Part shown: positions 39,042 through 57,946 of the stretch, in pieces
Layout of the letters: every line of letters starts with the position of its first letter
Position numbering within the stretch: the first letter of the stretch is position 1
DNA from: Promethearchaeota archaeon
Lineage (GTDB): Archaea; Asgardarchaeota; Lokiarchaeia; Sigyniarchaeales; SOKP01
Assembly: GCA_019057865.1 (NCBI GenBank)
Contig: JAHLWP010000018.1
Coordinates: 9,052-73,051, forward strand
Direction of reading: 5' to 3'
Length of the DNA: 64,000 nucleotides
Translations under genes and position numbers: made by a program
The notes under the pieces: model-generated
What the model was told of the DNA's origin: nothing
Databases searched by the model: none
What the model saw: only the letters and a program-made list of their open reading frames with translations

Positions 39042-39083
39042 ACTAATTGATTAAAGAGGAAAAAGAAAAGAGGTTAAAAAAAA

Positions 39084-40193
39084 ATGGTTGAAGAAGTTCT
39101 ACCTAAATCTTTTGAAGATTTAATAAAAGATGTCCATGAACCAGGTATTTGTGGAGAATGTGGGGGATGTGTTAGCTTTTGCTCGGCTCATGAGATAAAA
39201 GCAATTGAGATGTCCGAAACAGGACCTCCAAGATATTATAATAAAGATAATTGCCTAAAATGTGGGATTTGTTATTTAGTATGCCCTCAAACTCACATCT
39301 TAGATAATGAATTAAATGATAAGTATCATTATAAAGTATCTATTGGTAATTGGACAAAAATTGCATCAAGTCAAGCCGCTTCAGAGGAAATTAGGAGAAA
39401 TGCAACAGATGGTGGTGTTGTAACTGCGATTTTAATGTATTTATTAGATAAGAACTTAATAAACGGAGCTATTGTCTCAAAAAGAGAAGGTCCATTTAAT
39501 AGAGTTCCTTTCTTCGCTACAACGAAAGAGGAATTAATAGAAGCTGCAGGATCTCACTATGAAATCTCACAGGGAGTTGTAAGCTTAGAGAAATATAATT
39601 CATTTGTACCCTCGATCACAAAACTAAAAACAGTTGTGAGTTCTGATGCAATGAGCATTGCTGTTGTTGGTACACCATGTCAGATAAATTCTATTAGAAA
39701 GATGCAAGAATTAAGCATTTTACCTGCTCATATAGTAAAATATACATTTGGCTTATTTTGTAATTTAAATTTCTCATTTAACGCTGAAGCTCGTAAAAAA
39801 TTAGAAAAGCGGTTTGATTTTTCTTTTGATGATGTAGAAAAATTAAATATTAAGGAAAATTTGATCGTGCAGCTTAATGACGGTAAAACAAAAGATATTG
39901 ATTTTAAGGATGTTCACGAATTTGCAAGACCTGCATGTTTTGCATGCCGGGACTTTTCTAATGTATACGCAGATATATCATTTGGAGGTTTAGGATCTAA
40001 TGATGGATACACAACCGCGATAATTAGGACAAAAACAGGTGAAGAAATATATAATAATGCTCTTAGAGAAGGATATATACAAGAACCTCCTGATCTAAAT
40101 ACTTCTGTTAAAAAATCAGAGATGCTTGCTAAAGTTATTAGTTTCGGAAAAAGAAAGTTCCAAAGGTATAAAGAAGCTTTAAAAGAAAGGTAA
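39084..40193 (+). CDS. Coenzyme F420 hydrogenase/dehydrogenase beta-subunit (FrhB/FpoF-like) with N-terminal ferredoxin
   Basis: CGECGGCVSFC, DGGVVTAIL, AAGSHY, VGTPCQ, GLFC, CFACRDF..ADISFGGLGS. Confidence 0.88.
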   Translation: MVEEVLPKSFEDLIKDVHEPGICGECGGCVSFCSAHEIKAIEMSETGPPRYYNKDNCLKCGICYLVCPQTHILDNELNDKYHYKVSIGNWTKIASSQAASEEIRRNATDGGVVTAILMYLLDKNLINGAIVSKREGPFNRVPFFATTKEELIEAAGSHYEISQGVVSLEKYNSFVPSITKLKTVVSSDAMSIAVVGTPCQINSIRKMQELSILPAHIVKYTFGLFCNLNFSFNAEARKKLEKRFDFSFDDVEKLNIKENLIVQLNDGKTKDIDFKDVHEFARPACFACRDFSNVYADISFGGLGSNDGYTTAIIRTKTGEEIYNNALREGYIQEPPDLNTSVKKSEMLAKVISFGKRKFQRYKEALKER

Positions 40194-40757
40194 TAATCTA
40201 ATTTTTTTTTTATTTAGATGATTGTTTCTATAAAAATTCGTATTCTAAATTGAGATTAAGGAAATAAAATTGATAGGTTTTGTTCAAAAGGCAACTAATT
40301 TCAGATAAGATCGATTTTTTTTATACAATTTTGTAACCTTATAATTATTCTGATATATTAAATCTTAGATTTTTTATGTTATCTGTCGGATATATTACAA
40401 ATTTCATTATCACAATTTTGTTTTAGATAAAATTTGTACATTATTGTCTATCGGAAAGGATGATTTTTTCATAATTTTTTTTTATTTTCGATAATATAAT
40501 TTTAATTTATGGTCGCTTTTGAGCATTTTGTTCCTTTGTGATCGCCTTTTTCATACAAGTTTCTCGGATGCAGCATTTTTTGGATTAAAAACGTTCGATT
40601 CTGAAAATTGAATAGTGTATTTATGATCGAGATCGATCATTTCATTTAAATAGGTAATTTTCTTATAAAATTACAGTATAAAAAAAAAAAAAATTACATT
40701 AGAATTTATTTTTGAGGATTATTTTTAGCGATAATGAAAGTTTTAAGGTGATATATT

Positions 40758-42014
40758 ATATCAGGAAATGAAATCGAAAAGTTAATCAAGAGTTCTGATT
40801 TAGATAGATCCTTTATTAAATCTCTATCCAAAATTGAGGGAGCAAAAAGTATATTAGCTTGTTTTCAATGTGGAATGTGCTCATCAAGCTGTCCTATTGA
40901 AGAGCAATTTCCTTTAAGTCCAGATGATTTAACTAAAATAGCTGCAATTGGTGCGAAAAACAAGATTTTAAGAGAAAATGTCCTTAGATATTGCTTAACT
41001 TGCCGAACTTGTCAAGAATATTGCCCACAAGGTGTTGATTTTATTGAATTCATTAAAGCAGCTAGAAGGTTATTAGTAGACAAGGGTATGAAATATGAGG
41101 AGACTCATGATGGGATATTAACTCTTCTAAATGAAATACAAGCAAAACAATCATCAGGCTTAATATTACCCTCTGATTTAATACCAGAGGGATCTCAAAT
41201 ATCTAGAAAGGGTAAGATAGCATATTTTATTGGATGCTTACCAATTCTGGATGTTGTTTTTAATAATTTAGACTTAAATTTGCAAGGAATTGCGCAAAAT
41301 GGAATAAAGATCATGAATGAGGTACTCGAAAAGCCACCAATAATTCTTGGAAATATGAAATGTTGTGGACATGATGCCCTTTGGAAGGGACATTTTGAGA
41401 CTTTTAAAAAATTGGCAGAATATAATGTGAACGAAATCAATAAGTTAGGTATTGAAACTATCATTACAACATGTGCAGAATGTTATAGAACGTTAAAATT
41501 AGATTATCCGAAATATATTGAAAATGCCAATTTTAAGGTCATTCACCTTACAGAATTGATTGCTGATGAAGTTGAAAGTGGTCAATTTGAATTTTTAGAC
41601 TCTCCTAATCGGGCAGTTACATATCATGATCCTTGCAGATTAGGAAGGCACATGAAAGTTTATTCACCTCCTAGAAAAATCCTTAATTCAATGGAAGAAC
41701 ACGGGATCATATTTAATGAAATGCCAAGATCCAAGGAAAATTCTGTTTGCTGTGGAGTAAGTTGCTTTATAAATTGTAATGATCTATCAAAGGCTTTACA
41801 GCTCGATAGAATAAAAGAAGCAAAAAAGGTTGCAGATTTATTAGTAACCTCTTGTCCAAAATGCCAAATTCATTATAATTGTATGCTTCAAGAGAAAAAA
41901 GAAAAAATTTCTGATGAAATAAAGTTAGAAATTACAGATATAACAAATTTAATAGCTAATATGATGGGTTTTTCAGAAGAGAAAAAAGATGAAGTATTAT
42001 TAGCCTCCCCTTAA
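40758..42014 (+). CDS. HdrD-like (HdrC+HdrB/CCG fusion) Fe-S oxidoreductase; probable ATA start
   Basis: ORF-track ATG40875 cuts inside CFQCGMCSSSCP; frame open back to ATA40758 behind AAGGTGA; CCG domains KCCG, YHDPCRLGR, CCG, SCPKC. Confidence 0.82.
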   Translation: MSGNEIEKLIKSSDLDRSFIKSLSKIEGAKSILACFQCGMCSSSCPIEEQFPLSPDDLTKIAAIGAKNKILRENVLRYCLTCRTCQEYCPQGVDFIEFIKAARRLLVDKGMKYEETHDGILTLLNEIQAKQSSGLILPSDLIPEGSQISRKGKIAYFIGCLPILDVVFNNLDLNLQGIAQNGIKIMNEVLEKPPIILGNMKCCGHDALWKGHFETFKKLAEYNVNEINKLGIETIITTCAECYRTLKLDYPKYIENANFKVIHLTELIADEVESGQFEFLDSPNRAVTYHDPCRLGRHMKVYSPPRKILNSMEEHGIIFNEMPRSKENSVCCGVSCFINCNDLSKALQLDRIKEAKKVADLLVTSCPKCQIHYNCMLQEKKEKISDEIKLEITDITNLIANMMGFSEEKKDEVLLASP

Positions 42015-42038
42015 AGTACTTAAGAAGGTTGTAATTAA

Positions 42039-43769
42039 ATGTCTAATAAAGAAGAAAATAAAGAAGAATCTGTAAGGATTGGAACTTTTATTTGTCTATG
42101 TGGCTCAAAAATAGGAAGTGTCATAGATTGTAAATTACTCGCGGATTTTGCGAAGACATTTCCTGATGTAATATATTCTGAAGATAATTTATTTGCTTGC
42201 TCAGAATCAGGGTTAGCTAGTATTAAAAACGCAATTGAAAAATATAATTTAGAGAGAGTTGTAATAGCAGCCTGTACTCCAAGCACACATGAAAGTCTTT
42301 TTCAGAATACAATCCGAGAATCAGGAATAAATCCATATTTATTTGCATTAGTAAATATTCGTGACCAATGTGCTTGGGCGCATATGTCTGAACCTGAAAA
42401 AGCGATGGAAAAAGCAAAAGAGTTAATCGCATTAAACGTTTCAAGAGTTAAGCTTCTGGAACCTATCTATGAAACAACTGTAGATATCTGCCATTCTGCG
42501 TTAGTAATAGGTGGGGGAATAGCCGGACTAACAGCGGCACTTAGTTTAGGTAACCAGGGATTTAACTCATGTATTATTGAAAGAGAAAAAGAACTTGGGG
42601 GATTAGTTAGAAAGATTCACTATATTTTAGGAACTGGAGATCCTCAAGAATATCTTAAAAGTCTAATTGAACAGGTTAAAAATCATAAAAGGATTAAAAT
42701 TTTTACAAATGTTAAGATAGAAGAAATAAATGGATTCATCGGAAATTTCTCAACATTAATAAAATATAATGGTCGAAAAAAAGAACTTGAGTCTGGAGTA
42801 ATTATAGTTGCAACCGGAGGAAGAGAGTACAAGCCGAGAGAATTTTTATATGGTACGGATGAAAGAATCATAACACAGTTGGAATTAGAACAAAAAATTG
42901 TAGCCGATCAAGTAAAAGGACAAACAATAGCAATGATACAGTGTGTCGGATCTAGAAATGAAGAAAGACCAAATTGTAGCAGAATTTGTTGTGTAGAAGC
43001 AATTAAAAATGCTTTAAAATTAAAAGAAAAAAACCCTAGACTAAATGTTTGCATTTTAAATAGAGATATTCATACCTATGGTTTTAAAGAAGATTATTAT
43101 AACGAAGCAAGAGAAAAAGGAGTAATTTTTATTCAATTTGATGAAAATTTTGAACCAATAGTTAATATCAAAACTAATAAATTGACGATTACTGTAAAAG
43201 ATGTGTTATTAAATGAGCGTGTAACCCTTAAAACAGATCTTATTGCTTTAAGCTCTGCTTTTCTTCCCTCAGAAAATATGGAGCTTTCTAAAATGTTAAA
43301 AGTACCACTTGATAAAAACGGATTTTTCTTAGAAGCTCATGTTAAACTACGTCCACTTGATTTCGCAACTAGCGGAATATTCTTATGTGGCGCAGCACAA
43401 TGGCCAAAATTCATTGATGAAACAATTTCACAAGCATTAGGAGCTGCCTCTAGAGCGGGCACTATTTTATCAAAAGAAAAAATAAATATTGTCGGCTCTG
43501 TTGCAGAAATCGATGAGGATATGTGCATTGGTTGCGGTAATTGTAGGGATTTATGCGCCTATAATGCAATAGAAATTGGTGAAAGGCAATCAGAGTATAA
43601 AGCAGAAGATATAATACAAGAACCTATAGTAGAGTTAACTTGGTATAAATCTAAGGTTCTTCAAGCTTTTTGTAAAGGCTGTGGAGCGTGTATTGACGTA
43701 TGTCCTGTTGGAGCCTTGTCTTTAAAGCATTTTACTTTTCAACAAATTTCAAATAATTTTACTAAATAA
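42039..43769 (+). CDS. hdrA: HdrA-family module B
   Basis: GTFICLCG, GGGIAG, EAHVKLRP, CKGCGAC. Confidence 0.85.
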   Translation: MSNKEENKEESVRIGTFICLCGSKIGSVIDCKLLADFAKTFPDVIYSEDNLFACSESGLASIKNAIEKYNLERVVIAACTPSTHESLFQNTIRESGINPYLFALVNIRDQCAWAHMSEPEKAMEKAKELIALNVSRVKLLEPIYETTVDICHSALVIGGGIAGLTAALSLGNQGFNSCIIEREKELGGLVRKIHYILGTGDPQEYLKSLIEQVKNHKRIKIFTNVKIEEINGFIGNFSTLIKYNGRKKELESGVIIVATGGREYKPREFLYGTDERIITQLELEQKIVADQVKGQTIAMIQCVGSRNEERPNCSRICCVEAIKNALKLKEKNPRLNVCILNRDIHTYGFKEDYYNEAREKGVIFIQFDENFEPIVNIKTNKLTITVKDVLLNERVTLKTDLIALSSAFLPSENMELSKMLKVPLDKNGFFLEAHVKLRPLDFATSGIFLCGAAQWPKFIDETISQALGAASRAGTILSKEKINIVGSVAEIDEDMCIGCGNCRDLCAYNAIEIGERQSEYKAEDIIQEPIVELTWYKSKVLQAFCKGCGACIDVCPVGALSLKHFTFQQISNNFTK

Positions 43770-43790
43770 AAAAAAGAGGATAAGCTTAAA

Positions 43791-45476
43791 ATGTTAGAAG
43801 AAGGAAAGAATGAAAAAGAGATTAGAGTAGGAGTATTTGTTTGTCATTGTGGTTCTAATATCGGCGGAGTGATTGATTGTAAGAAACTCGCTAAATATGC
43901 GAAGAAATTACCTAATGTGGTTTATACTGAAGATAATCTTTACACATGCTCTGAAAATGGATTAGCCAGCATTAAGAAGGCAATAAAAGAGTATAATTTA
44001 AATCGGATAGTTGTAGCATCATGTACTCCAAGAACTCATGAACCTTTGTTTCGCGAATGTATCTCAGAAGCAGGATTAAATCCCTACCTTTTCAATTTTG
44101 TCAATATTAGAGAACAATGTTCATGGGTTCATAGGCAATATCCTAATGAAGCCTATGAGAAGGCAAAAGATCTAATTAGCATGGGAGTGGCTAAAGCCAC
44201 AAAATTAGAACCTTTGGAAATGATTACAATAAAAATTAATCCTAATGCTTTAGTAATTGGTGGTGGAATTTGCGGAATGAGTGCTGCACTTAATTTAAGT
44301 AGACAGGGATTTAAAACTTATCTTATTGAAAAGGAGAATGAATTAGGTGGAAGGTTAAATACACTTTATAAACTATTTCCACATGACACCGAGGCTTTAG
44401 AGCTAATAAAGGATATTAAAAATAAAGTTCAAAAAGCTAGGAATTTAGAAGTTTATACAACAACAAGAATAAAAAATATTGATGGATTTGTGGGGAATTA
44501 CGATATAGAAATTGTACAGAATGGTAAAATTATCAATTTAACAGTAGGAGCGATAATCGTTGCTGTAGGTTCTTCGACACTTACACCTGAAGGCATGTTT
44601 GGATATGATGGCAAAATAAGAATAACTCAGTACGAATTGGAAGCAAAACTAAGAAGAAATGAAATAGATGCAAATAATGTTATAATGATACAATGCGTGG
44701 GATCTCGGAATGATGAGAGACCTTATTGTTCAAGCATTTGCTGCATGACAGCTATAAAGAATGCGCTAATTATCAAAGAAAGAAATCCAATTTCAAATAT
44801 TACGATATTATTTAGAGATTTATACTCTCCCGGGACTAATTATGAAAAATATTATAGAAACGCAAGAGAAAAAGGAATACTCTTTATAAAATACAAACCT
44901 GATAAATTGCCTTCTGTAGAAGAAAATCAAATAAAGGTATTTAATGAATACATTGGAGATCATATAATAATTCCTTATGATTTATTGGTATTATCAACTC
45001 CATTAGTTGCCAATGAAGATAATAAGGAACTTGCGCAAAAATTAAAAGTACCATTGGAAGCCAACAATTTCTTCTTAGAAGCCCACGTAAAGTTACGCCC
45101 TAATGATTTTGCGACAGATGGAGTATATGTAGGTGGCTCAGCAAAATGGCCTGTGGACGTCTCAGAAACTATAACTCAAGGTTATGCAGCAGCAGCTAGG
45201 GCGAGTACGATTTTGTCTCATGAGACGATTAAAGTAGAGGGTGCTATTGCTACTGTAGATCCTGAAAAATGCATAGGATGCGGATCCTGCGAAATGATCT
45301 GTCCATTTAATGCTATACAAATAGAAAGGATGGAATTGGGGTTAAAAGCCACCATTTTTTCAGCTGTTTGTAAGGGCTGTGGAGTTTGTGGTGCAAGTTG
45401 TCCTTTAAATGCAATTTCTATGAAACATTTTATGGACCTTCAAATATATGAACAAATATATGCATTATCAGAATGA
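43791..45476 (+). CDS. hdrA: HdrA-family module B (close paralog of 30184..31866)
   Basis: GVFVCHCG, ASCTPRTHE, EAHVKLRP, CKGCGVC. Confidence 0.87.
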   Translation: MLEEGKNEKEIRVGVFVCHCGSNIGGVIDCKKLAKYAKKLPNVVYTEDNLYTCSENGLASIKKAIKEYNLNRIVVASCTPRTHEPLFRECISEAGLNPYLFNFVNIREQCSWVHRQYPNEAYEKAKDLISMGVAKATKLEPLEMITIKINPNALVIGGGICGMSAALNLSRQGFKTYLIEKENELGGRLNTLYKLFPHDTEALELIKDIKNKVQKARNLEVYTTTRIKNIDGFVGNYDIEIVQNGKIINLTVGAIIVAVGSSTLTPEGMFGYDGKIRITQYELEAKLRRNEIDANNVIMIQCVGSRNDERPYCSSICCMTAIKNALIIKERNPISNITILFRDLYSPGTNYEKYYRNAREKGILFIKYKPDKLPSVEENQIKVFNEYIGDHIIIPYDLLVLSTPLVANEDNKELAQKLKVPLEANNFFLEAHVKLRPNDFATDGVYVGGSAKWPVDVSETITQGYAAAARASTILSHETIKVEGAIATVDPEKCIGCGSCEMICPFNAIQIERMELGLKATIFSAVCKGCGVCGASCPLNAISMKHFMDLQIYEQIYALSE

Positions 45477-45497
45477 TTATTGGAGAAAGGTGTTCAA

Positions 45498-46262
45498 ATG
45501 TATAACCCAAAAATTTTAGGATTTTTATGTAATTGGTGCTCATATGCGGGTGCAGATCTTGCCGGTGTTTCGCGATTCAATTATCCACCAAATTTAAGGA
45601 TAATTAGAGTAATGTGCAGCGGAAGAATTGATCCAAATTTTATTTTGACAGCATTCGAAAAAGGTTTAGACGGAGTATTGGTAGCAGGATGTCACCTTGG
45701 AGATTGCCATTATCTTACAGGAAATTATCATACAAAATATAAGATTTTAATGATGAAAAAGATACTTGAAAAACTTGGGTTTGAAACAAAGAGATTACGA
45801 CTTGAATGGGTATCTGCTGCCGAAGGGAAAATATTTGCAGATTTAATAACTGAATTTACTGAAGAACTGATAAAACTAGGACCTTTATCTGTTAAATTTG
45901 ACAAAATTTTGATAAAGAATTTGTTTTTTGCCAAACAAATCTGTTCTGACTTTAGACTTAGATGGTTAATTAGTAGAGAAAGGGATTTAGTTGAAAGTGA
46001 AAATGCTTATGGTGAAAAAATTCCCGAGGAGAAATTTGAAAAATTATTAGACCATATAATAGAAACAGAATTGATTAAAATTAAAATTCAAAATCTTATT
46101 GAAGAAAAGGGTTTATCTGCAGAAGAGATTTCAAGTAAATTAAAAATTCCATCAGAAAAAGTTATGGAACATCTTATTACAATGAATGATGACCATAAAA
46201 TAACATTTAATATCAAAAACAAAATGGCAATATTTGCTAAAGAGGGAGGAATGGTTAAATGA
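45498..46262 (+). CDS. mvhD: MvhD [2Fe-2S] subunit with C-terminal wHTH-like extension
   Basis: FLCNWCSYAGADLAG; tail LSAEEISSKLKIPSEKVMEHL; likely start ATG45498. Confidence 0.85.
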   Translation: MYNPKILGFLCNWCSYAGADLAGVSRFNYPPNLRIIRVMCSGRIDPNFILTAFEKGLDGVLVAGCHLGDCHYLTGNYHTKYKILMMKKILEKLGFETKRLRLEWVSAAEGKIFADLITEFTEELIKLGPLSVKFDKILIKNLFFAKQICSDFRLRWLISRERDLVESENAYGEKIPEEKFEKLLDHIIETELIKIKIQNLIEEKGLSAEEISSKLKIPSEKVMEHLITMNDDHKITFNIKNKMAIFAKEGGMVK

Positions 46263-49200: not shown

Positions 49201-49321
49201 CCTTCCGGCTGTATGTAAAGGATGTGGAGCTTGTGAAGGTGTTTGTCCAGTTGGGGCTATAAGTTTAAAGCATTTCACAAATCAACAATTAATTGCTATG
49301 ATTCAATCTTATTTAGGATAA
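46259..49321 (+). CDS. hdrA: Large two-module HdrA (A+B fusion)
   Basis: DKTFPTNDCAMC, two FAD motifs, several 4Fe-4S motifs. Confidence 0.9.
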   Translation: MSKLESKIKIGAVLVVGGGIAGIQTSLDLAELGFKVFIVESSPAIGGIMSQLDKTFPTNDCAMCILSPKLVEVGRHQNIQIITHAEVENLEGSAGNFNVILKKYPRYINEDKCTGCGLCSEWCPIETSNEYDEGLRKRKSIFIKYPQAIPKLPSIDRTICIGCRLCEYICEAKAIDFTQKEEMIELKVGSIIVAQGSTPYNPLPLKMYGYGRFSNVIASTEFERILSASGPFMGHVLRPSDGKIPEKIVWIQCIGSRDRRIGNNYCSAVCCMYAIKEAIIAKEHEPEIDCYIFFIDIRAYGKGFEDYYLRAQELGIKFLRGKIALINEDPQTKSLIIAHENSETGEVIEEHFDMVVLSIGLQPSNSGIDLSKKLGVNLNKYNFIDTNIFSPLETNKPGIFVCGTCSGPKDIPETVAEASGVAGKVSSFLSTERNTLTSIKEYPPELSIEDQEARIGVFICHCGINIGGIVNIPEVVKFAKTLPNVAYAEENLYTCSQDTQDKMKQIIEEYKLNRVVVASCTPRTHESLFHNTIREAGLNPYLFELVNIREQCSWVHMSIPEEATEKAKDLVAMNVAKAKLLEPIYETSVDITHSGLVIGGGIAGMNAALELANQGFEVYLIEKEKELGGFVRNIHYVLEDGDPQEYLEQIVNQVLNHDKIKVFTSTKIKDVQGFVGNFLVTVNYNSKKKELDTGVIIVATGGTEYKPMEYMYGTDERILTQQELEQKIVLNEIDAETVVMIQCVGSRNEERPNCNRICCSLALKNALKLKEKNPKRNICILYRDIRTYGFKENYYGEAREKGIIFIRYDEKLEPEVSIKENKLIVSVNDSLLNEQIVIKPDLIVLSAGFLPTENKELSQMLKVPLEQNGFFLEAHVKLRPLDFATDGIFVCGTAQWPKFINETIPQAKGAAARAATILSKEKMKIIGSTAEIEENKCMGCGECRDICIYDAIEPIETIINFKGILDSEIPYVSLIRYKSRVLPAVCKGCGACEGVCPVGAISLKHFTNQQLIAMIQSYLG

Positions 49322-49335
49322 TGAGGTGTATAAAT

Positions 49336-49767
49336 ATGGAAAAAGATAAAAAAGGGTTTAATCCAAAAATAATTACATTTTTATGTAATTGGTGTGGTTA
49401 TGCTGGAGCTGATTTAGCAGGAGTAAGTCGTTTTCAATATCCTCCTACCATTAGAATAATAAGGGTAATGTGTTCTGGAAGAATCCAACCCTCTTTAATA
49501 CTTAATGCATTTAATCGTGGAAGTGATGGAGTTTTAGTATGTGGATGCCATTTAGGGGATTGCCATTATATTTCGGGAAATGAAAAAGCTGAGGAAGGAA
49601 TTAAGATAACTCAAAAATTACTTGATTTTTTAAGAATTGAACCAGAAAGACTTAGATTGGAATGGGTATCAGCAGCGGAAGGGGCTAAGTTTGCAGATGT
49701 AGTAAAAAATTTTACCGAGCATCTTATTTCAATCGGACCAATTAATATAGAAAGCGAGAGTGTGTAA
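49336..49767 (+). CDS. mvhD: MvhD [2Fe-2S] subunit
   Basis: FLCNWCGYAGADLAG, GCHLGDCHY; ATG49336 lies 6 nt after GAGGTGT. Confidence 0.9.
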   Translation: MEKDKKGFNPKIITFLCNWCGYAGADLAGVSRFQYPPTIRIIRVMCSGRIQPSLILNAFNRGSDGVLVCGCHLGDCHYISGNEKAEEGIKITQKLLDFLRIEPERLRLEWVSAAEGAKFADVVKNFTEHLISIGPINIESESV

Positions 49768-49772
49768 GAAAT

Positions 49773-52700
49773 ATGGTAGAGAGTAATAATTCTGAAAAAC
49801 AAGTATTGGTAATAGGGGGTGGTGTAGCTGGGATTTCTGCTGCCCTAGACCTAGCAGATCAAGGTCATCTTGTCTATTTAGTTGAAAAAAGCCCCTCAAT
49901 TGGAGGGAAAATGGCTCAATTGGATAAAACTTTTCCGACTTTGGATTGTTCAATATGTATTTTAGCACCTAAAATGGTCGAATGTGCTCGTCACCCTCGA
50001 ATTGAACTTTTAACTTATTCAGAAGTGAAAAGAGTTGACCGAATTCGTAATGGATCTACCTTCAAGGTAAGAATTCTACTTAAACCTAGATATATTGATA
50101 GTTCAAAATGCACTTCATGTGGAACATGTGCGCAAAAATGCCCCTATAAAAATTTTCCCTCTGAATTTGAACAAGGGTTAAGTAAAAGAGGTGCTGCGTA
50201 TATTCCTTTCCTTCAAGCAGTTCCAGCTGTATATCTTATTGATTCAGAAAATTGTACTTACTTTAAAAATGGTACATGCAAGGTATGTGAAAAATTTTGT
50301 CCGGCCCACGCAGTAGATTTTGAACAAAAACCAAAAGAAATAGAAATTGAAGTCGCTTCCATTATAGTAGCCACTGGTTTTGATCTAATGGATGTTAGTT
50401 CCTTAGAGAGGTACGGATATGGAAAATATTCCAATGTAACTGTATCCTTGGAATATGAAAGAATTATGTGTGCATCAGGTCCAACTAAAGGCGAAATTTT
50501 ACGCCCTTCCGATAATAAACACCCCCACAAGATAGGATTTATTCTATGTGTTGGATCGAGAAATGTTAATTTAAAGCCTTATTGTTCTAAAATTTGTTGT
50601 ATGTATGCTACAAAAGAAGCAATTATGACGATGGAACACCATTCTGATGCAGAAATTTTGGTTTTTTATAATGATTTACGCACGATTGGAAAGAATCATA
50701 ATGAATTTATTGATAGAGCTAAATCAGATTATAAGGTTCAATATGTCAGAGGTTTACCTAATAAGATTTATGAAAATACAGAAACAAAAGATCTTATAAT
50801 AAGACATAAAGACTTTGACACAGGTGAAATTAAATTTGATACAGTAGATATGGTTGTTTTATTTCCAGCAGTTATACCTAGCAGAGGAGCAGAGGAATTT
50901 AATGATATATTAGGGGTCGAAATGGACGAATATGGTTTTATAAAGCCAGTATCATCAACAAATAATATTGAAACTAATATTCCTGGAATTTATGTATGTG
51001 GATGTGTTCATGGTCCAGAAGATATTTCAACCTCTGTTGCTGAGGCTAGCGGTGCTGCTAGTAAAGCAGCTTCTAGAACTTCAATAACTACTATAGATGA
51101 AATAAAAGAAGATATTGTTGAAAGAAAAGTATCTAAAAGCGATCCTCCTCGAATCGGTGTTTTTATCTGTCATTGTGGTTCTAATATTGCAGGCTTTGTG
51201 GATGTTAAAAAGGTAGCGGAAGAAATTAAAACTGTTCCTGATGTAGCTTATGTTGAAAGAAATTTATATACTTGTTCGGAAGAATCTCAGAATAGTATAA
51301 AGGCGGCAATTGAAAAATATGATTTAAATAGGGTTGTAATTGCTGCGTGTACTCCTAGAACCCATCTTCCATTATTTCAGGGCACTTGTCATGAAGTAGG
51401 TCTTAATCCATATTTAGTCCTATTTGCAAGTATTAGAGAATTAGTGAGTTGGGTTCACATGTCAGAACCTGAAAAAGCTACACAAAAAGCAAAGGAACAG
51501 ATTTTAATGTGTATCGCAAAATCTCGGCTTGTAGAACCATTACACGATATTGAAGTTAATGTATTACCTGCTTCATTAGTTATTGGAGGGGGAATTGCAG
51601 GCATGACTGCAGCATTGGCTATGGCAAAAAAAGGATTTAAAGTATACATCGTAGAGCGGAGTGAAAATCTTGGTGGATTCATTCGGAACTTAAATGAAAT
51701 TAATACTGAGGGAACCTCTTCAGAACAAGTACTAACTCCAATATTGCAAGCAATAAAGACAAATCCTAATATAGAAGTTTTCATATCCTCAACAATAAAA
51801 GCTGTAAATGGTTCAATTGGCAACTTTCTAATAGTTATTGAACAAAACAGTGAAGAAAAAGAAATTAAAACTGGCACTATTATTGTTGCTGTGGGAGGAA
51901 AAGAATTTAAACCAAATGGATATTACCATTATGAAGAATATGAAAATATCTTTACAAATTTAGAACTTGAAGGTTTAATTCGAAATGAGCAATTACAAGA
52001 TGGTGAATCTATTGCTTTTATTCAATGCGTTGGTTCCCGTGAAGAACAAGGAAGAACTTATTGTTCATTGACTTGTTGTGAAGAATCTATAAAAAATGCT
52101 TTAACTGTCAAGAAGCGGTATCCTAATTCTCAGATTTTCATATTTTATCGAGACATAAGAGTATCTTATAAAGAAGAGATTGAATATAGAAAAGCAAGAG
52201 AAAAAGGCATTAATTTTATACAATATAAACCGGAAAATCCCCCAATGTTGAAAAATAAGGATGACAAATTAATATTAAATGTGTCTGATGCTTTAACAAG
52301 AATGAAATTCGAATTATCTTTAGATAAAGTAGTGCTTGCTACTCCTTTAATAGCATGGGAAGAAAATAAAAAGCTATCTGAAATGTTAAAAGTCCCCCTT
52401 GATAAAAACGGTTTCTTTTTTGAAGCACATCCTAAATTAAGACCTGTTGATTTTGCTACGGATGGAATCTTCACATGTGGAACTGCTCAATGTCCTAAAA
52501 ATATAAAAGAATCTTTAAGTCAAGCTCTGGGCGCGGCATCTAGAGCTTTAATCCCCTTAATGAATAGTAAAGCATCGGTCGAGGGTGCTACATCAAGTTT
52601 ACCTGAATTTAATAAAAAATTATGTACAGGCTGTGAAGTCTGTCTAACTGTATGTCCTTATAATGCCATCTCTAAGAACGAATTAGATGAGATTGAAATA

Positions 52701-52844
52701 AATCAAGTTCTTTGTAAAGGCTGTGGAGTATGTGGGGCTACGTGTACTAATCAAGCTCTTGTAATAAAACATTTCACAAATGAGCAAATTATTTCTCAAA
52801 TCAATTCTTGTAAAGAAGAAAAACTGGTTGAACTAAAGTTATAA
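49773..52844 (+). CDS. hdrA: Large two-module HdrA (A+B fusion)
   Basis: DKTFPTLDCSIC, two FAD motifs, EAHPKLRP, C-terminal ferredoxin. Confidence 0.9.
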   Translation: MVESNNSEKQVLVIGGGVAGISAALDLADQGHLVYLVEKSPSIGGKMAQLDKTFPTLDCSICILAPKMVECARHPRIELLTYSEVKRVDRIRNGSTFKVRILLKPRYIDSSKCTSCGTCAQKCPYKNFPSEFEQGLSKRGAAYIPFLQAVPAVYLIDSENCTYFKNGTCKVCEKFCPAHAVDFEQKPKEIEIEVASIIVATGFDLMDVSSLERYGYGKYSNVTVSLEYERIMCASGPTKGEILRPSDNKHPHKIGFILCVGSRNVNLKPYCSKICCMYATKEAIMTMEHHSDAEILVFYNDLRTIGKNHNEFIDRAKSDYKVQYVRGLPNKIYENTETKDLIIRHKDFDTGEIKFDTVDMVVLFPAVIPSRGAEEFNDILGVEMDEYGFIKPVSSTNNIETNIPGIYVCGCVHGPEDISTSVAEASGAASKAASRTSITTIDEIKEDIVERKVSKSDPPRIGVFICHCGSNIAGFVDVKKVAEEIKTVPDVAYVERNLYTCSEESQNSIKAAIEKYDLNRVVIAACTPRTHLPLFQGTCHEVGLNPYLVLFASIRELVSWVHMSEPEKATQKAKEQILMCIAKSRLVEPLHDIEVNVLPASLVIGGGIAGMTAALAMAKKGFKVYIVERSENLGGFIRNLNEINTEGTSSEQVLTPILQAIKTNPNIEVFISSTIKAVNGSIGNFLIVIEQNSEEKEIKTGTIIVAVGGKEFKPNGYYHYEEYENIFTNLELEGLIRNEQLQDGESIAFIQCVGSREEQGRTYCSLTCCEESIKNALTVKKRYPNSQIFIFYRDIRVSYKEEIEYRKAREKGINFIQYKPENPPMLKNKDDKLILNVSDALTRMKFELSLDKVVLATPLIAWEENKKLSEMLKVPLDKNGFFFEAHPKLRPVDFATDGIFTCGTAQCPKNIKESLSQALGAASRALIPLMNSKASVEGATSSLPEFNKKLCTGCEVCLTVCPYNAISKNELDEIEINQVLCKGCGVCGATCTNQALVIKHFTNEQIISQINSCKEEKLVELKL

Positions 52845-53079
52845 GTTCTGGTAAGAGGAGATTTTACCTATATAAGTAGACATTAAAGGAAGGAAATAAG
52901 TAAAATTACTTTTAAAAAATTTTTATATCCTTTTATTTTGTGTTTGTTATTTGAAAAAAATCAATAATGAATCTAATTCAATAGATAGAGTCAATAATAC
53001 CTTCAAATATTCTTTTTCTCCATACTTGTTTTTAAAATAGACATCTAATACACCAGTAATCGTAAAAAAGACTCCAAGT

Positions 53080-53259
53080 CTAATTAATCTTGAAGAATTA
53101 GAAATCTCAGTCCATAATATACAAAGATTGCCGTTGTTCATAAAAAATCTTAAAAACCTTAAAATCTTGAGAGTTTACTCTTCAGAGAATCTGAAGAATA
53201 AAGAAAGACCAAAATGGTTAAAGGAGATGCCTAACTTAGTAAAAATTCAATTTTATTAA
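53080..53259 (+). pseudogene. Start-less 3' fragment of a leucine-rich-repeat gene
   Basis: Translates LINLEELEISVHNIQRLPLFIKNLKNLKILRV...MPNLVKIQFY*; upstream in-frame TAG at 53038. Confidence 0.6.
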
Positions 53260-53307
53260 CCATTAACAAGACTGAAATTATTTTAAAAGTTATAATGATA
53301 CAAGTAT

Positions 53308-53404
53308 AAAAAGAAAAGAAAAATAAAAAACTTGTTTAAAAAAATGGATTTTTGAATTGTACTTAGGAGATTGCCCTGTTAGAAACATCGGTGGATTACC
53401 TGCG
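53308..53404 (-). repeat. Actin 3'-end remnant 1: codons QVIHRCF* plus ~70 nt of actin 3'UTR/poly-T terminator
   Basis: 53379-53404 matches 54868-54893 with 3 synonymous changes; 53308-53378 aligns with 54796-54867. Confidence 0.9.
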
Positions 53405-53416
53405 TAATCCTCTAAA

Positions 53417-53518
53417 CTTAATACATCAGTAAAGAAATCAGAAATGCTAGCTAAAATTATAAGCTTTGGGAAAAGAAAATTTGAGAGATACAATAAAGCA
53501 TTAAAAAAAAGGAAATAG
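53417..53518 (+). pseudogene. 3'-end remnant of the FrhB-like gene (39084..40193)
   Basis: LNTSVKKSEMLAKIISFGKRKFERYNKALKKRK* vs LNTSVKKSEMLAKVISFGKRKFQRYKEALKER* (27/32 identical); followed by a T-rich terminator-like tract. Confidence 0.92.
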
Positions 53519-53972
53519 GTAAAATTATTTATTTTTTTATTTCTTCTTTTATTTCGTAAGATTCTGCTAGATGTGGTATTAATAATAAACAACAAGCTAA
53601 AAATAACTATAAATCTTTAATGCTTCTCGTCTAGCCGATCCCTTCAGGTAAGTCTGACTCTGATGTGCGAAATTATATCGATTTCATGGCAATGGATTAT
53701 TACTTCTCCCAATATCCAAGATTAGTAGTTTTCTTTTTTTGGATTATATTTTATTTATTTTTAAGAATTGGCTTTTTTTACGATTTCTTTGTTGTTTAAT
53801 TTTATTAATAGATTTTATTGATTTGAGAAAAAGCATTCGAATTTCGGCTTTTTTGACATGGTAAAGACGATATTTATCATCAATTTTTTGACTCATTTAA
53901 GAAAAAATAATCATGAGAAAAAAGAATAAAAAAATAAATGAAAAAATAAAAAACTTGAAGAGGTTTACCTCT

Positions 53973-54040
53973 TTAGAAACATCGGTGTATTACTTGTGGA
54001 CCCATTTCTTTGTATTCTCGCCTCGTGACCCACATACGAT
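53973..54040 (-). pseudogene. Actin 3'-end remnant 2 ([21 protein letters not shown])
   Basis: 21/21 aa identical to the actin C-terminus; 12 substitutions in 66 nt, all at third codon positions. Confidence 0.95.
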
Positions 54041-54041
54041 A

Positions 54042-54061
54042 TAATACAATCTAATACAATC
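54042..54061 (+). repeat. Tandem 10-mer TAATACAATC x2 at the remnant-2 junction
   Basis: Seen directly, starting 2 nt after actin homology ends. Confidence 0.75.
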
Positions 54062-54258
54062 TGAAATATGAGATAGAATTTATTGTTTTTTGTTGATATC
54101 TATTGAATTTTAACATAAATTGAATTAATGAGATAATAATTTTCATTCAATTCTATTTTTATTCAAGATTTTAAGAATAAAAAAGGAAAATAAAAAAAAT
54201 TAAATAAAGAGATAAAAGTAGAATCTAAAAATATATTAATTTATGGTTTTTTCATTAT

Positions 54259-54600
54259 TTATTTTGCAATATATTCGTCTGGATCGCCACCATCTTCGAG
54301 ATGTTCAATGAAATTTTTCAATCCATTTAAAATAGTTGTAAGAGAACGCTTTTTTATTTTTTCATGCTTTAAAATTTTATAATCAACCCAATACGATAAT
54401 TCTGTCATGTCGCCTTTCTCTTTTAATATATAGCCATATCCATTAAAATCAGGGTGGTTTACTTTCAATGAAAGACTTTCATTTTCTATTCGATCTGTAA
54501 TAGTGATATTCAATTTAGAAGCGAGAGTTATGTTTTCTAAAACCTCCCAAATTTTTTTTGGAGGAGCTCTAATTTCGATATTTGATTCAAACTTAGGCAT
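54259..54600 (-). CDS. SRPBCC/polyketide-cyclase (START-like) family protein, short and possibly internally deleted
   Basis: N-terminal IEIRAPPKKIWEVL and C-terminal helix LNGLKNFIE; only 113 aa. Confidence 0.65.
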   Translation of the reverse strand: MPKFESNIEIRAPPKKIWEVLENITLASKLNITITDRIENESLSLKVNHPDFNGYGYILKEKGDMTELSYWVDYKILKHEKIKKRSLTTILNGLKNFIEHLEDGGDPDEYIAK

Positions 54601-54795
54601 AAAATCACTTCATAAATTTTTGAACTATCTTAAGTCATTTTGATTTTTATACTTTTGCTCCAAATTTAAAAATTCATATAAAAATAGCTTTAAAAATGAT
54701 GCCTATAAGGAGCTTGGAAAGAAAATCTATCTCTTTACTTATAGTAATTTTTATTGTTCAGATACTAAAATTAAGAATTAAGATTTGAAGTCTTG

Positions 54796-54820
54796 AAAAA
54801 AAGAAAAGAAAAATAAAAAA
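54796..54820 (-). terminator. Poly-T terminator-like tract downstream of actin
   Basis: T-rich tract on the minus strand ~50-70 nt after the stop; retained in the remnant copy at 53308-53330. Confidence 0.55.
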
Positions 54821-54867
54821 CGGGTTAAAAAAATGGATTTTTGATTTACGTTGAGGAGATTTCCCCA

Positions 54868-56013
54868 TTAGAAGCATCGGTGAATTACTTGCGGTCCCAT
54901 CTCCTTATATTCGCGTCTGGTTACCCACATGCGATGGAAAGTTTTAAGTGACGAAAGAATGCTTCCACCAATCCAAACAGAATACATACGCTCTGGAGGT
55001 GCGATTATTTTGACGTCAACACTCTCAGGGATTTGTTCTTTGATTTCCTTAGTTAAACGCTCCTTAATCCCTGGGAACATAGTACTTCCACCAGAGAGAA
55101 CGATGTTGCTGTAAAGATCCCTTCTTAGGTCGACATCGCACTCGGAAATGGAGCCTACGATCACATCATCTAAAGGTTCGAGTTCTTTTCCGATTACACT
55201 TGGATTGAAGAGACACTCGGGTCCGAGAAAACGTTCCACGCCAACCATTATGGTCTCTCCATCAGGGAGCATGTAGCTTTTCTCCATTCCGGCGACCTTC
55301 TTACTCAACATCATTTCCTTTTCGGGATCTATCGCGACATAGCATAATTTCTCCTTGATATCTCTCACAATCTCCTTTTCGGCAGATGTCGTGAAAGAGT
55401 ATCCTTTCTGTCTAAGTAATCTTTGTAAATAATTGGTAATATCTCGACCAGCTAGATCAATTCTTTGGATAGCATGGCTTAAAGCAAAACCCTCGAAAAT
55501 TGGCACAACGTGGGAGACCCCATCACCAATATCTATAACGCATCCTGTGGTACGACCTGAAGCGTAGAGGGATAATACTGCTTGCATGGCTACATAAAGT
55601 GCTGGAGTGTTGAAAGTTTCAAACATAATTTCTGCCATTTTTTCCCGATTTGGTCTGGGATTTAAGGGGGCTTCGGTCAAAAGTATAGGGTGTTCACTAG
55701 GATCAATCCTGAGGTCTGTATAAAAGGTGTAATGCCAAATTTTTTCCATGGCTGTCCAGTCTTCTATAATACCATGCTCAACTGGAAACATTAATTTGAG
55801 GACACCTTTAAGTTGCATTGCTTCTTCTCCGATGTAATATTCCCTAGTATAATGTTCAACGTCTGTCATTATAGATTCATACTTTGGATAACCTATGAGG
55901 GTTGGAAAAACTGATCGAGGTTGATCTTCTCCGGCGAAGCCATTTTTTGAAATACCAGTACCATTATCAACCACAAGTGCCTTAGCGCTTAAAAAGCTTT
56001 CTTCTTCTGCCAT
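54868..56013 (-). CDS. Lokiactin (eukaryote-like actin)
   Basis: [78 protein letters not shown], terminal HRCF. Confidence 0.98.
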
Positions 56014-56488
56014 AATTCTTTTTCAGCCTATATTTTTAATTTTAATTTTTATAGATATTATTTCTAGATGTTTTTTTATATTGCTTAAGGTAATATTAAT
56101 TTTTATATTTTTATCAAATAATTGCTTTTTTTATAAACAATTAATGGGTAAAATAAAAAATTTAATAATCTAATAAATTTCATCTTTATAAATTTTTTTA
56201 ATACAGAAATAAAACGTACTATATACAAATAAGTTTTAAATAAAATATTTAAAAGTAACTAATATTTTGGATTTCTAAAAAAGCTTGTAATAGCTTGATT
56301 TTATATCTCTTCTATGTTTGCATTATAAAAAATTAGTGTAAAAATAAACGCGTATGATGAAATTGTTATAAAAAAATAGTAACTAGAAATATCTGTTATC
56401 ATATCAATAATATCGACAAAAAAACAAATAAAAAGAATTTAATCTAAAATTCATTAAATTATTTGTTAATCTCATCACTTAAAATTTT

Positions 56489-57946
56489 ATGACTTTAAAA
56501 ATGGAATTGAACCTTGATTATTTAGAAGAAAATATTGACCAAATAGGTATTAAAGAGGCATCCGCTTTACTAAAAGAATTGATTGTAAGTTCAAAAGATC
56601 CTCTATCTCGGCAAAAAGCTTTAAGAATCTTTGGTTCAATTGATAATAGCAAAAACTTCAAATTTTTTGAGCAGTTATTTCTTTCTGATGAAAATTTTAA
56701 TATTAGGCTAGAAACAGGATATGTTTTAAGGGATAAATATCTTAGACATAAAAAATTTGTACCTCTTTTAGAATTTACTTTAAATAAACTTGATAATGTG
56801 CAGCAGAGACTTCTTGCTGTAGAAATACTAAATCTAATAAATACAACAAATTCAAGAAAAATAATAATTGATTATCTAAAGAGATTGATAAAAACAGAGT
56901 TTAAAAGCAAATTTGAAAAATTTTTCAATAGAATATTAACAGATGAACTTGTAAATCCAATTCCAAGTACGATTATAGATACTTGTATTAATTTAATTCT
57001 ATACGATTATTACTCTAATAAATGTAGATACCATATTACAACGAGAGAAGGAAAAATTGTATCATTAAACTGTGAAGGATCCAATTTGAAAAAGATCTCA
57101 GAGATTCTAGAATTTAATAGATTAATATATTTAGAACATCTTTTACTCCAAAGAAATAAAATTAAAAATATTGAGGGTTTTGCACATTTAAATAGATTAA
57201 AGACTCTAAATCTTAGTAATAATCAGTTAGGAAGAATAGAAAACTTAGAAGTTTTAAAAGAAACTTTAGAAGAATTAGATTTATCAAATAATAAGATTGA
57301 AAAGATAGAAAATCTAGAGCCATTAAGAAATTTGAGGAAACTATCTTTAGAATCTAATTTGATTAAGGAAATTGAGGGTTTAGAGAATTTAGTAAATTTA
57401 GAAGAGTTAAACTTAAGTAGTAATAACATTGGAGTTATTAAGACTCTAAACTATTTGTTAAAATTAAGAAAGCTAAATCTCTCTTTCAATAAATTAGAGA
57501 AGATCTCAGGCTTAAATAAATTAAGAAATTTATTATGGTTATATTTAAATAACAATTTAATTAAATGTATTGAAAATCTTGATACTTTAAAAGATCTAAA
57601 GGGACTTTATCTCTCAAATAATTGTATTGAGACAATAAAAAATTTAACAAATTTAACAAATCTAAGAAAATTAGAATTATCAAATAATAGTATCCAGAGA
57701 ATTCAAGGATTAGAAAGCCTCAGAAAACTTCAAGAAATATTTTTAGATAAAAATAACATAAGTAAATTGGAAGGTTTAGACAATTTAGAGAATTTAATAA
57801 TTCTTTTTCTTGAAAATAATGAAATTTCAGAGTTTAGTAATGAGAGTATTGAGAATTTAAAGAATCTTAATTTTATATTCTTAAATGAAAATCCATTAAC
57901 GCCAAAAAGTTGGGAAATTTATAGGAAAAAGACTAAATATCCATAA
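56489..57946 (+). CDS. HEAT-like N-terminus + Sds22-type leucine-rich repeat protein
   Basis: About 12 22-residue LxxLxLxxNxIxxIExL repeats. Confidence 0.88.
   Translation: MTLKMELNLDYLEENIDQIGIKEASALLKELIVSSKDPLSRQKALRIFGSIDNSKNFKFFEQLFLSDENFNIRLETGYVLRDKYLRHKKFVPLLEFTLNKLDNVQQRLLAVEILNLINTTNSRKIIIDYLKRLIKTEFKSKFEKFFNRILTDELVNPIPSTIIDTCINLILYDYYSNKCRYHITTREGKIVSLNCEGSNLKKISEILEFNRLIYLEHLLLQRNKIKNIEGFAHLNRLKTLNLSNNQLGRIENLEVLKETLEELDLSNNKIEKIENLEPLRNLRKLSLESNLIKEIEGLENLVNLEELNLSSNNIGVIKTLNYLLKLRKLNLSFNKLEKISGLNKLRNLLWLYLNNNLIKCIENLDTLKDLKGLYLSNNCIETIKNLTNLTNLRKLELSNNSIQRIQGLESLRKLQEIFLDKNNISKLEGLDNLENLIILFLENNEISEFSNESIENLKNLNFIFLNENPLTPKSWEIYRKKTKYP

Follow-up and report, generated by a model that had tools for sequence, protein, structure and literature searches.

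Organization of the frhB-actin interval

The window (the whole stretch of DNA analysed, 64,000 nucleotides) contains an intact frhB-like gene and an intact lokiactin gene in convergent orientation. Between them lie an accessory hdr operon, a second cargo and a series of 3' gene remnants, two derived from frhB and two from actin, such that strings of orphaned 3' ends are found downstream of the intact genes. Every feature reported in a preliminary description of this DNA was found in the window, with slight correction of coordinates; the decayed frhB remnant had gone unnoticed. The features are listed below in order of position.

39084-40193, + strand: live, recombinant frhB-like gene (Pfam FrhB_FdhB_N/C domains, sliding identity, informative sites)
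39782-39795: homologous crossover interval within frhB (informative sites)
40194-40874: intergenic spacer of P type separating frhB from the hdr operon (continuous with P-type DNA in L081, L082 and L083)
40875-52844, + strand: accessory hdr operon 2, cargo (Pfam; seven Hdr/MvhD-type genes)
52833-52941, + strand: decayed older frhB 3' remnant (remnant 3), with an in-frame stop (blastn, tblastn)
52947-53141, - strand: 64-aa ORF of unknown function in the P-type tract (ORF list; also called in Type I contigs)
53308-53378, - strand: terminator region that belonged to the lost P-type actin (T-rich when read along the actin sense strand)
53379-53404, - strand: actin 3' remnant 1 (stop, 7 codons and 2 nt), at the right end of the P-type tract
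53406-53518, + strand: Q-type frhB 3' remnant (36 codons and its own stop; alignment to G012)
53519-53972: Q-type intergenic DNA of the mini-junction
53973-54040, - strand: actin 3' remnant 2 (stop and 21 codons), beta-like allele
54041-54796, - strand: second cargo, a 113-aa ORF (54259-54600, - strand) and its flanks
54797-54867, - strand: terminator region of live actin, a genus-typical T-rich tract
54868-56013, - strand: live lokiactin (Pfam Actin, E 1.6e-133)

The first products of hdr operon 2 are an HdrB/C-like CCG protein, HdrA-like proteins of 576 and 561 aa and an MvhD/FlpD protein of 260 aa; the further products are an HdrA fusion of 1020 aa, an MvhD of 174 aa and a second HdrA fusion of 1023 aa. 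Orthologs of this operon were present in only 2 of the 53 other genomes of the genus. The last codons and stop of the final hdr gene, an HdrA fusion, are overlapped by the decayed frhB remnant, which matches the frhB end of the closest relative, G012, at 71% identity (blastn, E 1e-7) and is carried by every hdr2-bearing haplotype (Types I, II and IV, described below). The SRPBCC assignment given previously to the 113-aa ORF was not upheld, given that its Pfam match to Polyketide_cyc2 is sub-threshold (E 0.016) and that a single-sequence AlphaFold model reached a pLDDT of 51.

Origin of the gene remnants

Actin remnant 1 differs from the live gene at 3 positions and remnant 2 at 12 of 66, and, as had been stated in the preliminary description, all of these differences are synonymous. 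Those in remnant 2 fall without exception at third codon positions, an outcome with a chance probability of about (1/3)^12. The ~71-nt actin terminator region is also present in two copies (53308-53378 and 54797-54867), which are 84.5% identical. The Q-type frhB remnant and the 54 nt that follow it are identical to the live frhB 3' end of G012 at 166 of 167 nt (99.4%), as compared with ~78% identity between this remnant and the local live frhB. The substitution pattern and the external counterparts thus agree with the earlier proposal that the copies diverged while part of functional genes and did not decay as local duplicates. No source for the remnants was found among paralogs in the same genome; identities of at most 41% to other actin-like genes and at most 45% to frhB paralogs rule out such an origin.

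Remnant 2 has 92.6-94.1% identity to the 3' ends of live actin in Types I and II; as it is no closer than this to the known beta alleles, its exact parent is unsampled. A remnant 2 of identical type, together with its junction, is present in Type II (98.5%). Identities of the remnants to 17 species ranged from 74 to 86%, and a nucleotide tree based on 66 nt holds too little sequence to identify the donor species. Actin 3' remnants of independent origin were also seen in two further species of the genus, G022 and G024, and each of the four independent actin remnants is of 23 codons or fewer.

The interval is a patchwork of three haplotypes

The mosaic structure was analysed by comparison with sister assemblies that encode an identical actin protein; all sequences compared were short-read metagenome assemblies. 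Some part of 52800-54900 is contained in 11 sequencing studies. The frhB-actin interval in this genome is a patchwork of three haplotypes, P, Q and R, each of which occurs separately in sister genomes. The Q haplotype consists of frhB and actin converging across a short spacer, as in G012 (1.3 kb), where the adjacency anticipated in the preliminary description was indeed present. In the P haplotype hdr operon 2 lies between frhB and the oppositely oriented actin, and Type I contigs carry g38202, P-type frhB, hdr2 and actin in one contiguous stretch. In the R haplotype the 113-aa gene, in the same orientation as actin, lies between actin and frhB.

P-type DNA spans a 13.6-kb tract of the window from 39796 through the hdr operon to 53404. 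Its identity to Type I contigs is 99.3-99.6% across 44432-53378, and the same range was obtained for hdr operon 2 against both Type I and Type II assemblies. The operon lies beside the frhB anchor in the window and is lacking at this position in G012 and in R-type genomes. The P-type parent haplotype is reconstructed from two derivative junctions, since exact-pattern scans of JGI metagenomes and GTDB genomes found no intact P-type actin with its terminator. In Type I assemblies, the P-type actin terminator region is cut precisely at the former stop codon.

The block at 53411-54040, previously described as a miniature frhB/actin junction from a different allele set, proved to be orthologous to the G012 junction. 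Identity to the frhB end and downstream DNA of G012 is 96% across 53406-53605, and identity to its actin end and downstream DNA is 85.6% across 53729-54040. Within the intergenic part, 53519-53605 corresponds to the region downstream of Q-type frhB and 53729-53972 to the region downstream of actin (87% identity to G012). A stretch of 25 nt that is identical in the frhB start region and the G012 spacer is purine-rich and of ribosome-binding type, and was dismissed as a chance match.

R-type DNA begins at 54041 and takes in the last ~440 nt of actin; a 10-nt tandem duplication at 54042-54061 adjoins this junction. The 113-aa gene therein is a further heterologous gain, here beside actin. Live actin shares 99.2-99.5% identity with R-type contigs bearing the 113-aa gene, and its 3' ~440 nt (54868 to ~55308) represent an alpha allele common to R-type assemblies. 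The rest of the gene is 98-100% identical to all sister haplotypes. With respect to Types I and II, 67 of 72 differences fall within the final ~440 nt, all of them synonymous, and identity in the flanks of this stretch is 98-100%.

Homologous crossovers and illegitimate joins

Both live genes are recombinant. In frhB, Q-type sequence makes up the 5' ~700 nt (100% identity to G012) and P-type sequence the 3' ~400 nt (97-100% identity to Type I assemblies). The ~95 Q-informative sites end at 39781, and more than 100 P-informative sites begin at 39796, which places a homologous crossover within a 14-nt interval. The displaced Q-type frhB 3' end lies 13.6 kb downstream of the live gene. In actin, the corresponding mosaic boundary lies at about 55308-55393, which resolves a homologous crossover to within ~85 nt.

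The other end of the P-type tract is of a different nature. At J1 in the window, the 26-nt actin end terminating at 53404 is followed by a filler T at 53405 and then by frhB at codon -36, and comparison with the G012 parent revealed zero shared sequence at this join; the parents of J2 and J3 are known in part. P and Q sequences are joined elsewhere in other genomes. In Type II, 53114 is joined to a position 57 nt upstream of frhB, an arrangement seen in three assemblies, one of them from an unrelated 2015 run. In Type IV, 52915 is joined to frhB position ~677, and the Type I junction lies exactly at the old actin stop. For actin, junctions fall at the stop codon and at codon positions -8, -14 and -22; for frhB, they fall 57 nt upstream, at ~677 and at codon -36. 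On contig C5, a separate array of repeated convergent-junction modules was observed, in which the remnants derive from one gene and are all of equal length.

A model for the frhB-actin interval

The mosaic is observed directly, as are its crossover intervals and junction sequences, the existence of live counterparts for the remnant alleles and the lack of a recombinase at the locus. These observations are best explained by repeated recombination between lineages, with sequential displacement resembling homology-facilitated illegitimate recombination (HFIR), a reading to which we assign a probability of about 0.8. The frhB-actin interval would be hypervariable, with the flanking convergent conserved genes serving as homology anchors for co-circulating Lokiarchaeial lineages. 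Each import would involve one homologous crossover ~0.4-0.5 kb inside an anchor gene, and its other end would be joined illegitimately in or beside the 3' end of the resident copy. The anchor gene would thereby gain a new, synonymously different 3' end, together with cargo (the 13.6-kb P tract with hdr2, or the 113-aa gene), and the former 3' end, stop and terminator included, would be shifted downstream as a dead remnant. Several such events would result in sequential displacement, and the remnants would be 3' ends because frhB and actin converge. The pathway may be described as HFIR or, equivalently, as one-ended homologous repair completed by end joining; we infer that pathway, and likewise which way the DNA was transferred and how it came to enter the cell.

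The preliminary description had proposed that DNA from related lineages entered by recombination within an anchor gene, exchanged the 3' end of that gene, carried in cargo and displaced the old end, and this sequence of changes is seen on both the frhB and the actin sides. Actin remnant 1, however, is no displaced resident end but travelled in as the terminal part of the incoming P fragment. Random illegitimate joining predicts actin remnants of 23 codons or fewer only if a survivorship argument is added; probably, short remnants alone persist, since long direct repeats would recombine away.

Alternative explanations

One large event may instead have set a P-type unit beside a Q-type unit, with independent deletions then trimming the redundant middle to yield the window, Type II and Type IV. 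The initial product might have been a merodiploid, a tandem heteroduplication or a Campbell-type integration of a circular P fragment via frhB; the class of event, inter-lineage recombination free of integrases, would be the same and only the path would differ. The end products of such a P x Q join would be no different, and P sequence indeed lies to the left and Q to the right in all three forms, with nested lengths of retained Q-type frhB (full, ~450 nt and 113 nt). Type II keeps two full frhB copies around hdr2, and the Type IV fragment begins at ~39761, 20-35 nt from the crossover in the window. However, no form is derivable from another by deletion alone, as each retains unique P or Q sequence, the hypothetical ancestor was not found among the assemblies compared, and the number of events required is at least that of independent joins. 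We regard this route as rather unlikely.

A site-specific element that targeted the 3' end of actin or frhB, imitated the gene end within its attachment site and has since lost its integrase would account for remnants that are in direct orientation to the live gene and retain stop and terminator, for the recurrence of actin 3' remnants in further species and for the equal-length remnants of one gene at the C5 locus. This reading is very improbable and is largely refuted by the following. Pfam and PHROGs searches revealed no integrase, recombinase or mobility domain in the cargo proteins of any variant; neither a tyrosine recombinase nor an IS605 OrfB (PF00589, PF01385) was detected on contig C31; and inserts in G013, G018, G022, G024 and G012, which encode an MFS transporter, TPR, GTPase and ferric-reductase-like proteins and unknowns, also contained no integrases. 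The earlier statement that integrases and transposases are absent from the window extends to the cargo variants and to the contig. Each event has its own junction position, independent insertions do not share the same core at the same position, and live and remnant copies possess no long identical core. Moreover, the swapped tracts reach inside the genes for ~400 nt, their graded mosaic edges are typical of homologous recombination, and the cargo is a metabolic operon. Given the variable junctions, the lack of an integrase and cargo devoid of mobility genes, actin is better termed a homology anchor than a site-specific landing pad, as it had been called. Of the two analogies drawn in the preliminary description, HFIR is retained and tRNA-like site-specific integration is set aside on account of the varying junctions.

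An assembly chimera of strains co-occurring in the metagenome-assembled genome (MAG) was also considered, given that the MAG is in 87 contigs with 5% contamination, that P-, Q- and R-type strains derive from related sample series and that two comparison scaffolds contain N gaps. An apparent extra 50-nt frhB remnant in one of these, L076, arises where contig ends overlap on either side of an N gap and is not a scar, and the L077 spacer is itself an N gap. Nevertheless, a chimera is scarcely credible. Independently built Logan contigs, assembled with a different pipeline, reproduce 39225-44591 and 52284-55387, and with them each junction, at 100% identity, and one of these, L080, covers the frhB crossover interval. 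At that crossover a graph switch by the assembler is excluded, as the 14-nt interval is shorter than any k-mer, and the illegitimate junctions offer no common k-mer for switching. The Type II junction recurs in three assemblies, including the unrelated run.

Finally, a local duplication of the frhB/actin junction in this lineage, with copies decaying in place, would give a layout like the tandem copies of a convergent junction seen here, but is refuted by the substitution pattern of remnant 2, which is unlike decay, by the 99.4% identity of the frhB remnant to the live gene of another species and by counterparts of at least 98.5% identity, in a different context in other genomes, for every segment.

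Relationship to known systems

Tyrosine integrases place genomic islands at the 3' ends of tRNA or protein genes. As at the present locus, the gene 3' end is then duplicated in direct orientation around the cargo and the gene stays intact; by contrast, the present locus has no integrase or fixed att core, its junctions vary and homologous tracts of ~400 nt have been swapped within the genes. Replacement-type flexible genomic islands, known from bacterial population genomics, are variable cassettes flanked by conserved core genes. They share with the frhB-actin interval the exchange of cassettes at one locus among close relatives via conserved flanks. However, a plain double crossover leaves no remnants, whereas here one illegitimate side per event has left a readable record.

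Experiments have demonstrated HFIR in Acinetobacter, Streptococcus pneumoniae and Pseudomonas stutzeri (de Vries & Wackernagel 2002; Prudhomme et al. 2002; Meier & Wackernagel 2003; all as cited in PMC5361080). As here, one crossover takes place in a homologous anchor and the other join has no or minimal homology, foreign DNA is gained beside the anchor and no dedicated recombinase is involved. In contrast to those demonstrations, the present case is deduced from natural variants in uncultured Asgard archaea; its tracts are long (13.6 kb), the recipient join lies inside the anchor gene so that a displaced 3' end is left behind, and two convergent anchors give rise to back-to-back remnants.

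Arrays produced by 3'-end displacement are known at Rhs, CDI and T6SS effector-immunity loci (Jackson et al. 2009; Kirchberger et al. 2017, PMC5361080), and integrase-free HFIR has been proposed as their mechanism (PMC5361080). There, as here, a conserved gene acquires a new 3' part with each successive import, and older ends become downstream orphans. The displaced ends at those loci encode different toxin domains with immunity genes, under diversifying selection. In the window, by contrast, Pfam searches found no toxin or immunity domains, and the displaced ends encode the same protein (actin, with residues identical to those of the live gene) or nearly the same protein (frhB); the remnants are therefore neutral scars, and the selected cargo lies beside the gene and not within it. 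The mechanism is thus already known from bacteria; no report of HFIR-like displacement in Asgard archaea was found in the literature searched.

Implications for Lokiarchaeia

Actin remnants of 23 codons or fewer in four of four cases, a junction at the stop codon and the array on contig C5 are hints of preferred break sites. It is conceivable, if doubtful, that convergent genes in Lokiarchaeia, above all those with high expression like lokiactin, are preferentially broken and joined at their 3' ends, where breaks could arise, for example, via convergent transcription or transcription-replication conflict. If so, convergent junctions would constitute a genome-wide, host-driven, recombinase-free platform for gene capture and not merely places where scars survive.

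The interval provides sequence-level evidence for the exchange of DNA by homologous recombination between Lokiarchaeial lineages, and indicates that a whole 12-kb energy-metabolism operon can be acquired without mobile-element machinery. The lokiactin gene is a mosaic in which the last ~440 nt have been swapped among strains with the protein unchanged, which affects phylogenies and strain typing that use this gene. A note of caution also follows for annotation, in that 3' gene fragments in such MAGs may be true scars and need not be annotation noise or misassembly. The nested remnants constitute a log of successive events, from which gene flow is quantifiable in an uncultured group close to the ancestor of eukaryotes.

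Displaced gene ends between frhB and actin

Genes were identified from the open reading frame (ORF) layout together with Pfam scans, and the three remnants of gene 3' ends at 53379-54040 were established by repeat finding, alignment and codon-wise comparison. The features of the interval are as follows.

39084-40193, + strand: frhB-like gene
40875-52844, + strand: seven Hdr/MvhD-type genes (accessory hdr operon 2, hdr2)
52833-52941: remnant 3, a newly found, older frhB 3' end with in-frame stop, overlapping the final hdr gene at its 3' end
53308-53378: T-rich copy of the actin terminator (~71 nt), preceding remnant 1
53379-53404: actin remnant 1
53406-53518: frhB remnant with its own stop
53973-54040: actin remnant 2
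54259-54600, - strand: 113-aa ORF without family
54868-56013, - strand: actin (Pfam Actin, E = 1.6e-133)

The miniature convergent frhB/actin junction and the 3' remnants noted in the preliminary description are present. On the 5' side of frhB lie genes for a Fer4_22 protein and a FAD/NAD-binding protein with a DHODB-type Fe-S domain, and past actin are those for an LRR protein and a GNAT acetyltransferase. The hdr2 operon belongs to the accessory gene content: among 53 other genomes of the genus, only 2 have an ortholog of its first gene.

Codon-wise comparison of remnant 2 with the live actin gene revealed differences at 12 of 66 positions, all 12 of which are synonymous third-position changes. 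Thus, the sequence diverged inside a working actin gene and not through in-place decay of a dead copy, as had been proposed for the actin remnants. The remnant 2 allele serves as the live actin end (92.6-94.1% identity) in two of the haplotypes described below, Types I and II. Other actin-like and frhB-like genes of the same genome (G000) are too distant to have been the source of the remnants. Directly adjoining the junction that ends remnant 2 is a 10-nt tandem duplication (TAATACAATC twice, 54042-54061), which may have been left by the joining reaction.

The undisturbed locus and mosaic anchor genes

In G012, the closest relative, hdr operon 1 and two redox genes precede frhB, which a 1.3-kb spacer separates from convergent actin, and hdr2 is absent from the locus. 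Window positions 53406-53605 align with the frhB 3' end and downstream DNA of G012, and positions 53729-54040 align with its actin 3' end and downstream DNA. Given that both halves align in this manner, the miniature junction is orthologous to the true frhB/actin junction. Over its initial 167 nt, the frhB remnant region departs from G012 at a single base.

Three haplotypes are distinguished here: Q (frhB-spacer-actin, G012-like), P (frhB-hdr2-actin) and R (frhB-113-aa gene-actin). The live frhB gene is ~100% identical to that of G012 over its first ~700 nt, after which identity falls abruptly to ~75%. With the Type I contig L081 as the P-type reference, ~95 consecutive Q-informative sites, the last at 39781, are followed by >100 P-informative sites from 39796, and a homologous crossover within an anchor gene is thereby seen in frhB (39781-39796). 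Two positions inside this interval, 39782 and 39785, match neither reference, which could reflect heteroduplex repair or unsampled parents. Identity to the sister haplotypes is 98-100% across the window actin and the flank upstream of it, except over the last ~440 nt of actin, where 67 of the 72 differences from Type II lie, all of them synonymous. The mosaic patterns of frhB and actin imply that the 3' ~0.4-0.5 kb of each anchor gene was exchanged along with adjacent DNA, in agreement with the earlier proposal that DNA of related lineages recombined inside an anchor gene and replaced its 3' end.

The stretches 39070-39781 and 53406-53572 are contiguous in G012 and ~99.5-100% identical to it, in comparison with 88-95% for neighboring genes. 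The pattern resembles a recent exchange of ~1.2 kb between the window species and G012 that was later split by the P tract.

Haplotypes in sister assemblies

A look-up of the exact actin protein in public assemblies yielded ten contigs from several studies, which were extended by further look-ups. The content of the frhB-actin interval varies among these contigs (frhB_P and frhB_Q are frhB alleles; beta is an actin 3' allele).

Type I (L070, L073-L075, L081): g38202, full frhB_P, hdr2, remnant 3, 64-aa ORF, P terminator copy truncated precisely at the former actin stop, cassette of 101-aa and 151-aa genes, actin with beta-type 3' end
Type II (L071, L072, L083; identical junction in Logan contig L084 from an unrelated 2015 run): full frhB_P, hdr2, remnant 3, P DNA to 53114; then 57 nt plus full frhB_Q, the window's spacer, remnant 2, part of the 113-aa cassette, 151-aa gene, beta actin
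Type III, or R (L076, L077): frhB_Q, short spacer, 113-aa gene, actin 99.2-99.5% identical to window actin; no remnants in these scaffolds, which contain N gaps
Type IV (L078, L079): hdr2, remnant 3 to 52915, ~450-nt Q-type frhB fragment, five small ORFs, actin

For all window segments, another assembly contains a counterpart of at least 98.5% identity, placed in a different structural setting. In one Type I assembly (L070/L081 versus window 45283-47624), hdr2 is shorter, with one 577-aa HdrA replacing a 561-aa HdrA, a 260-aa MvhD and a 1020-aa fusion; this looks like a deletion via recombination between hdrA paralogs.

Origin of the arrangement

An assembly artefact is very unlikely. Over 39225-44591 and 52284-55387, stretches that take in the frhB crossover and all three illegitimate joins, the window is matched at 100% identity by Logan contigs produced independently by a different pipeline; moreover, the illegitimate joins have no k-mer in common and the change from Q to P takes no more than 14 nt, which rules out an assembly-graph switch.

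In the simplest account of the window, a Q-type locus would first have gained 13.6 kb of P-type DNA (39796-53404). Its left end would have entered by the homologous crossover in frhB, and its right end would have fallen by chance 26 nt into P-type actin and been joined to resident frhB codon -36. This join (53404-53406) contains one filler base and no homology. A second import would have supplied a new 3' end for actin together with the 113-aa cassette, through a crossover ~440-525 nt inside actin, with an illegitimate join of its other end at resident actin codon -22 leaving remnant 2 behind. Remnant 3 would be the trace of an earlier, similar event in the P lineage, at the arrival of hdr2. 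A less likely variant path, a single large P × Q join followed by independent deletions, would give identical products.

For the successive imports, homology-facilitated illegitimate recombination is the best-fitting mechanism, and the structure also corresponds to the "sequential displacement" put forward for Rhs and T6SS loci (PMC5361080). The core of the preliminary description, in which import within an anchor gene brings cargo and displaces the old 3' end, holds, and the underlying observation is confirmed. That actin junctions cluster in the final 23 codons is provisionally attributed to instability of longer repeats.

No recombinase or mobility domain was detected in the cargo proteins of any variant or in the inserts of other species. 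Searches for tyrosine integrase or IS605 OrfB gave no match on the window contig; the integrase search did match other G000 contigs. Gene capture free of an integrase is consistent with these results, but the accompanying suggestion of a dedicated landing pad at actin is not supported, given that junction positions are different in every event.

Displaced gene ends elsewhere

Comparison of L032-L047 and L068 with window 54868-57946 shows that actin is inverted between species of the genus and is flanked, in both orientations, by the frhB block and the LRR gene. It is convergent with the frhB side in G000, G012, G013, G018 and G022 and co-oriented with the LRR gene in G006, G017, G009, G011, G016, G005, G007, G024, G015, G001 and G010. 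The two co-oriented ("B") genomes whose upstream DNA was covered have the same redox gene block at the opposite flank of actin; frhB was found there in G024 and not in G006. Two of these species, G022 and G024, have independently arisen actin 3' remnants. That of G022 (L043:19126-19230) retains 51 nt and the terminator and is found beyond the 5' end of an inverted actin; that of G024 (L042:14832-14900) is decayed and adjoins the LRR gene after a 3.1-kb insert with a ferric-reductase-like gene.

A second array of similar architecture, with repeated convergent-junction modules, was observed on another G000 contig (C5:800-7000). Its convergent genes (93-998, + strand; 3963-4475, - strand) are separated by cassettes of 0.8-1.7 kb. 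Each module joins the 3' end of one gene, across a 16-nt spacer, to the final ~31 codons of the other, whose remnants are all equal in length; copies lie at 803-1106, 1922-2224 and 3864-4057 and share 91-93% identity, and there is a fourth, incomplete copy at 6866-6978. Further 3' remnants occur 1-3 kb from their parent genes at C60:19651-19773, where homology breaks off sharply 123 nt ahead of the stop, and at C52:54084-54185. Unlike the actin remnant, both carry mixed synonymous and non-synonymous changes.

When the last 40 residues of 3,322 G000 ORFs were scanned, 17 stop-terminated C-terminal remnants were recovered in short frames, 9 of them no more than 3.2 kb from the parent gene; the C5 array is among those recovered. 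A literature search returned no report of such a mechanism in Asgard archaea; the best-fitting one is already known from bacteria. Given the remnants of other genes found in the G000 scan, the phenomenon is not unique to actin, where the purely synonymous signature is clearest.
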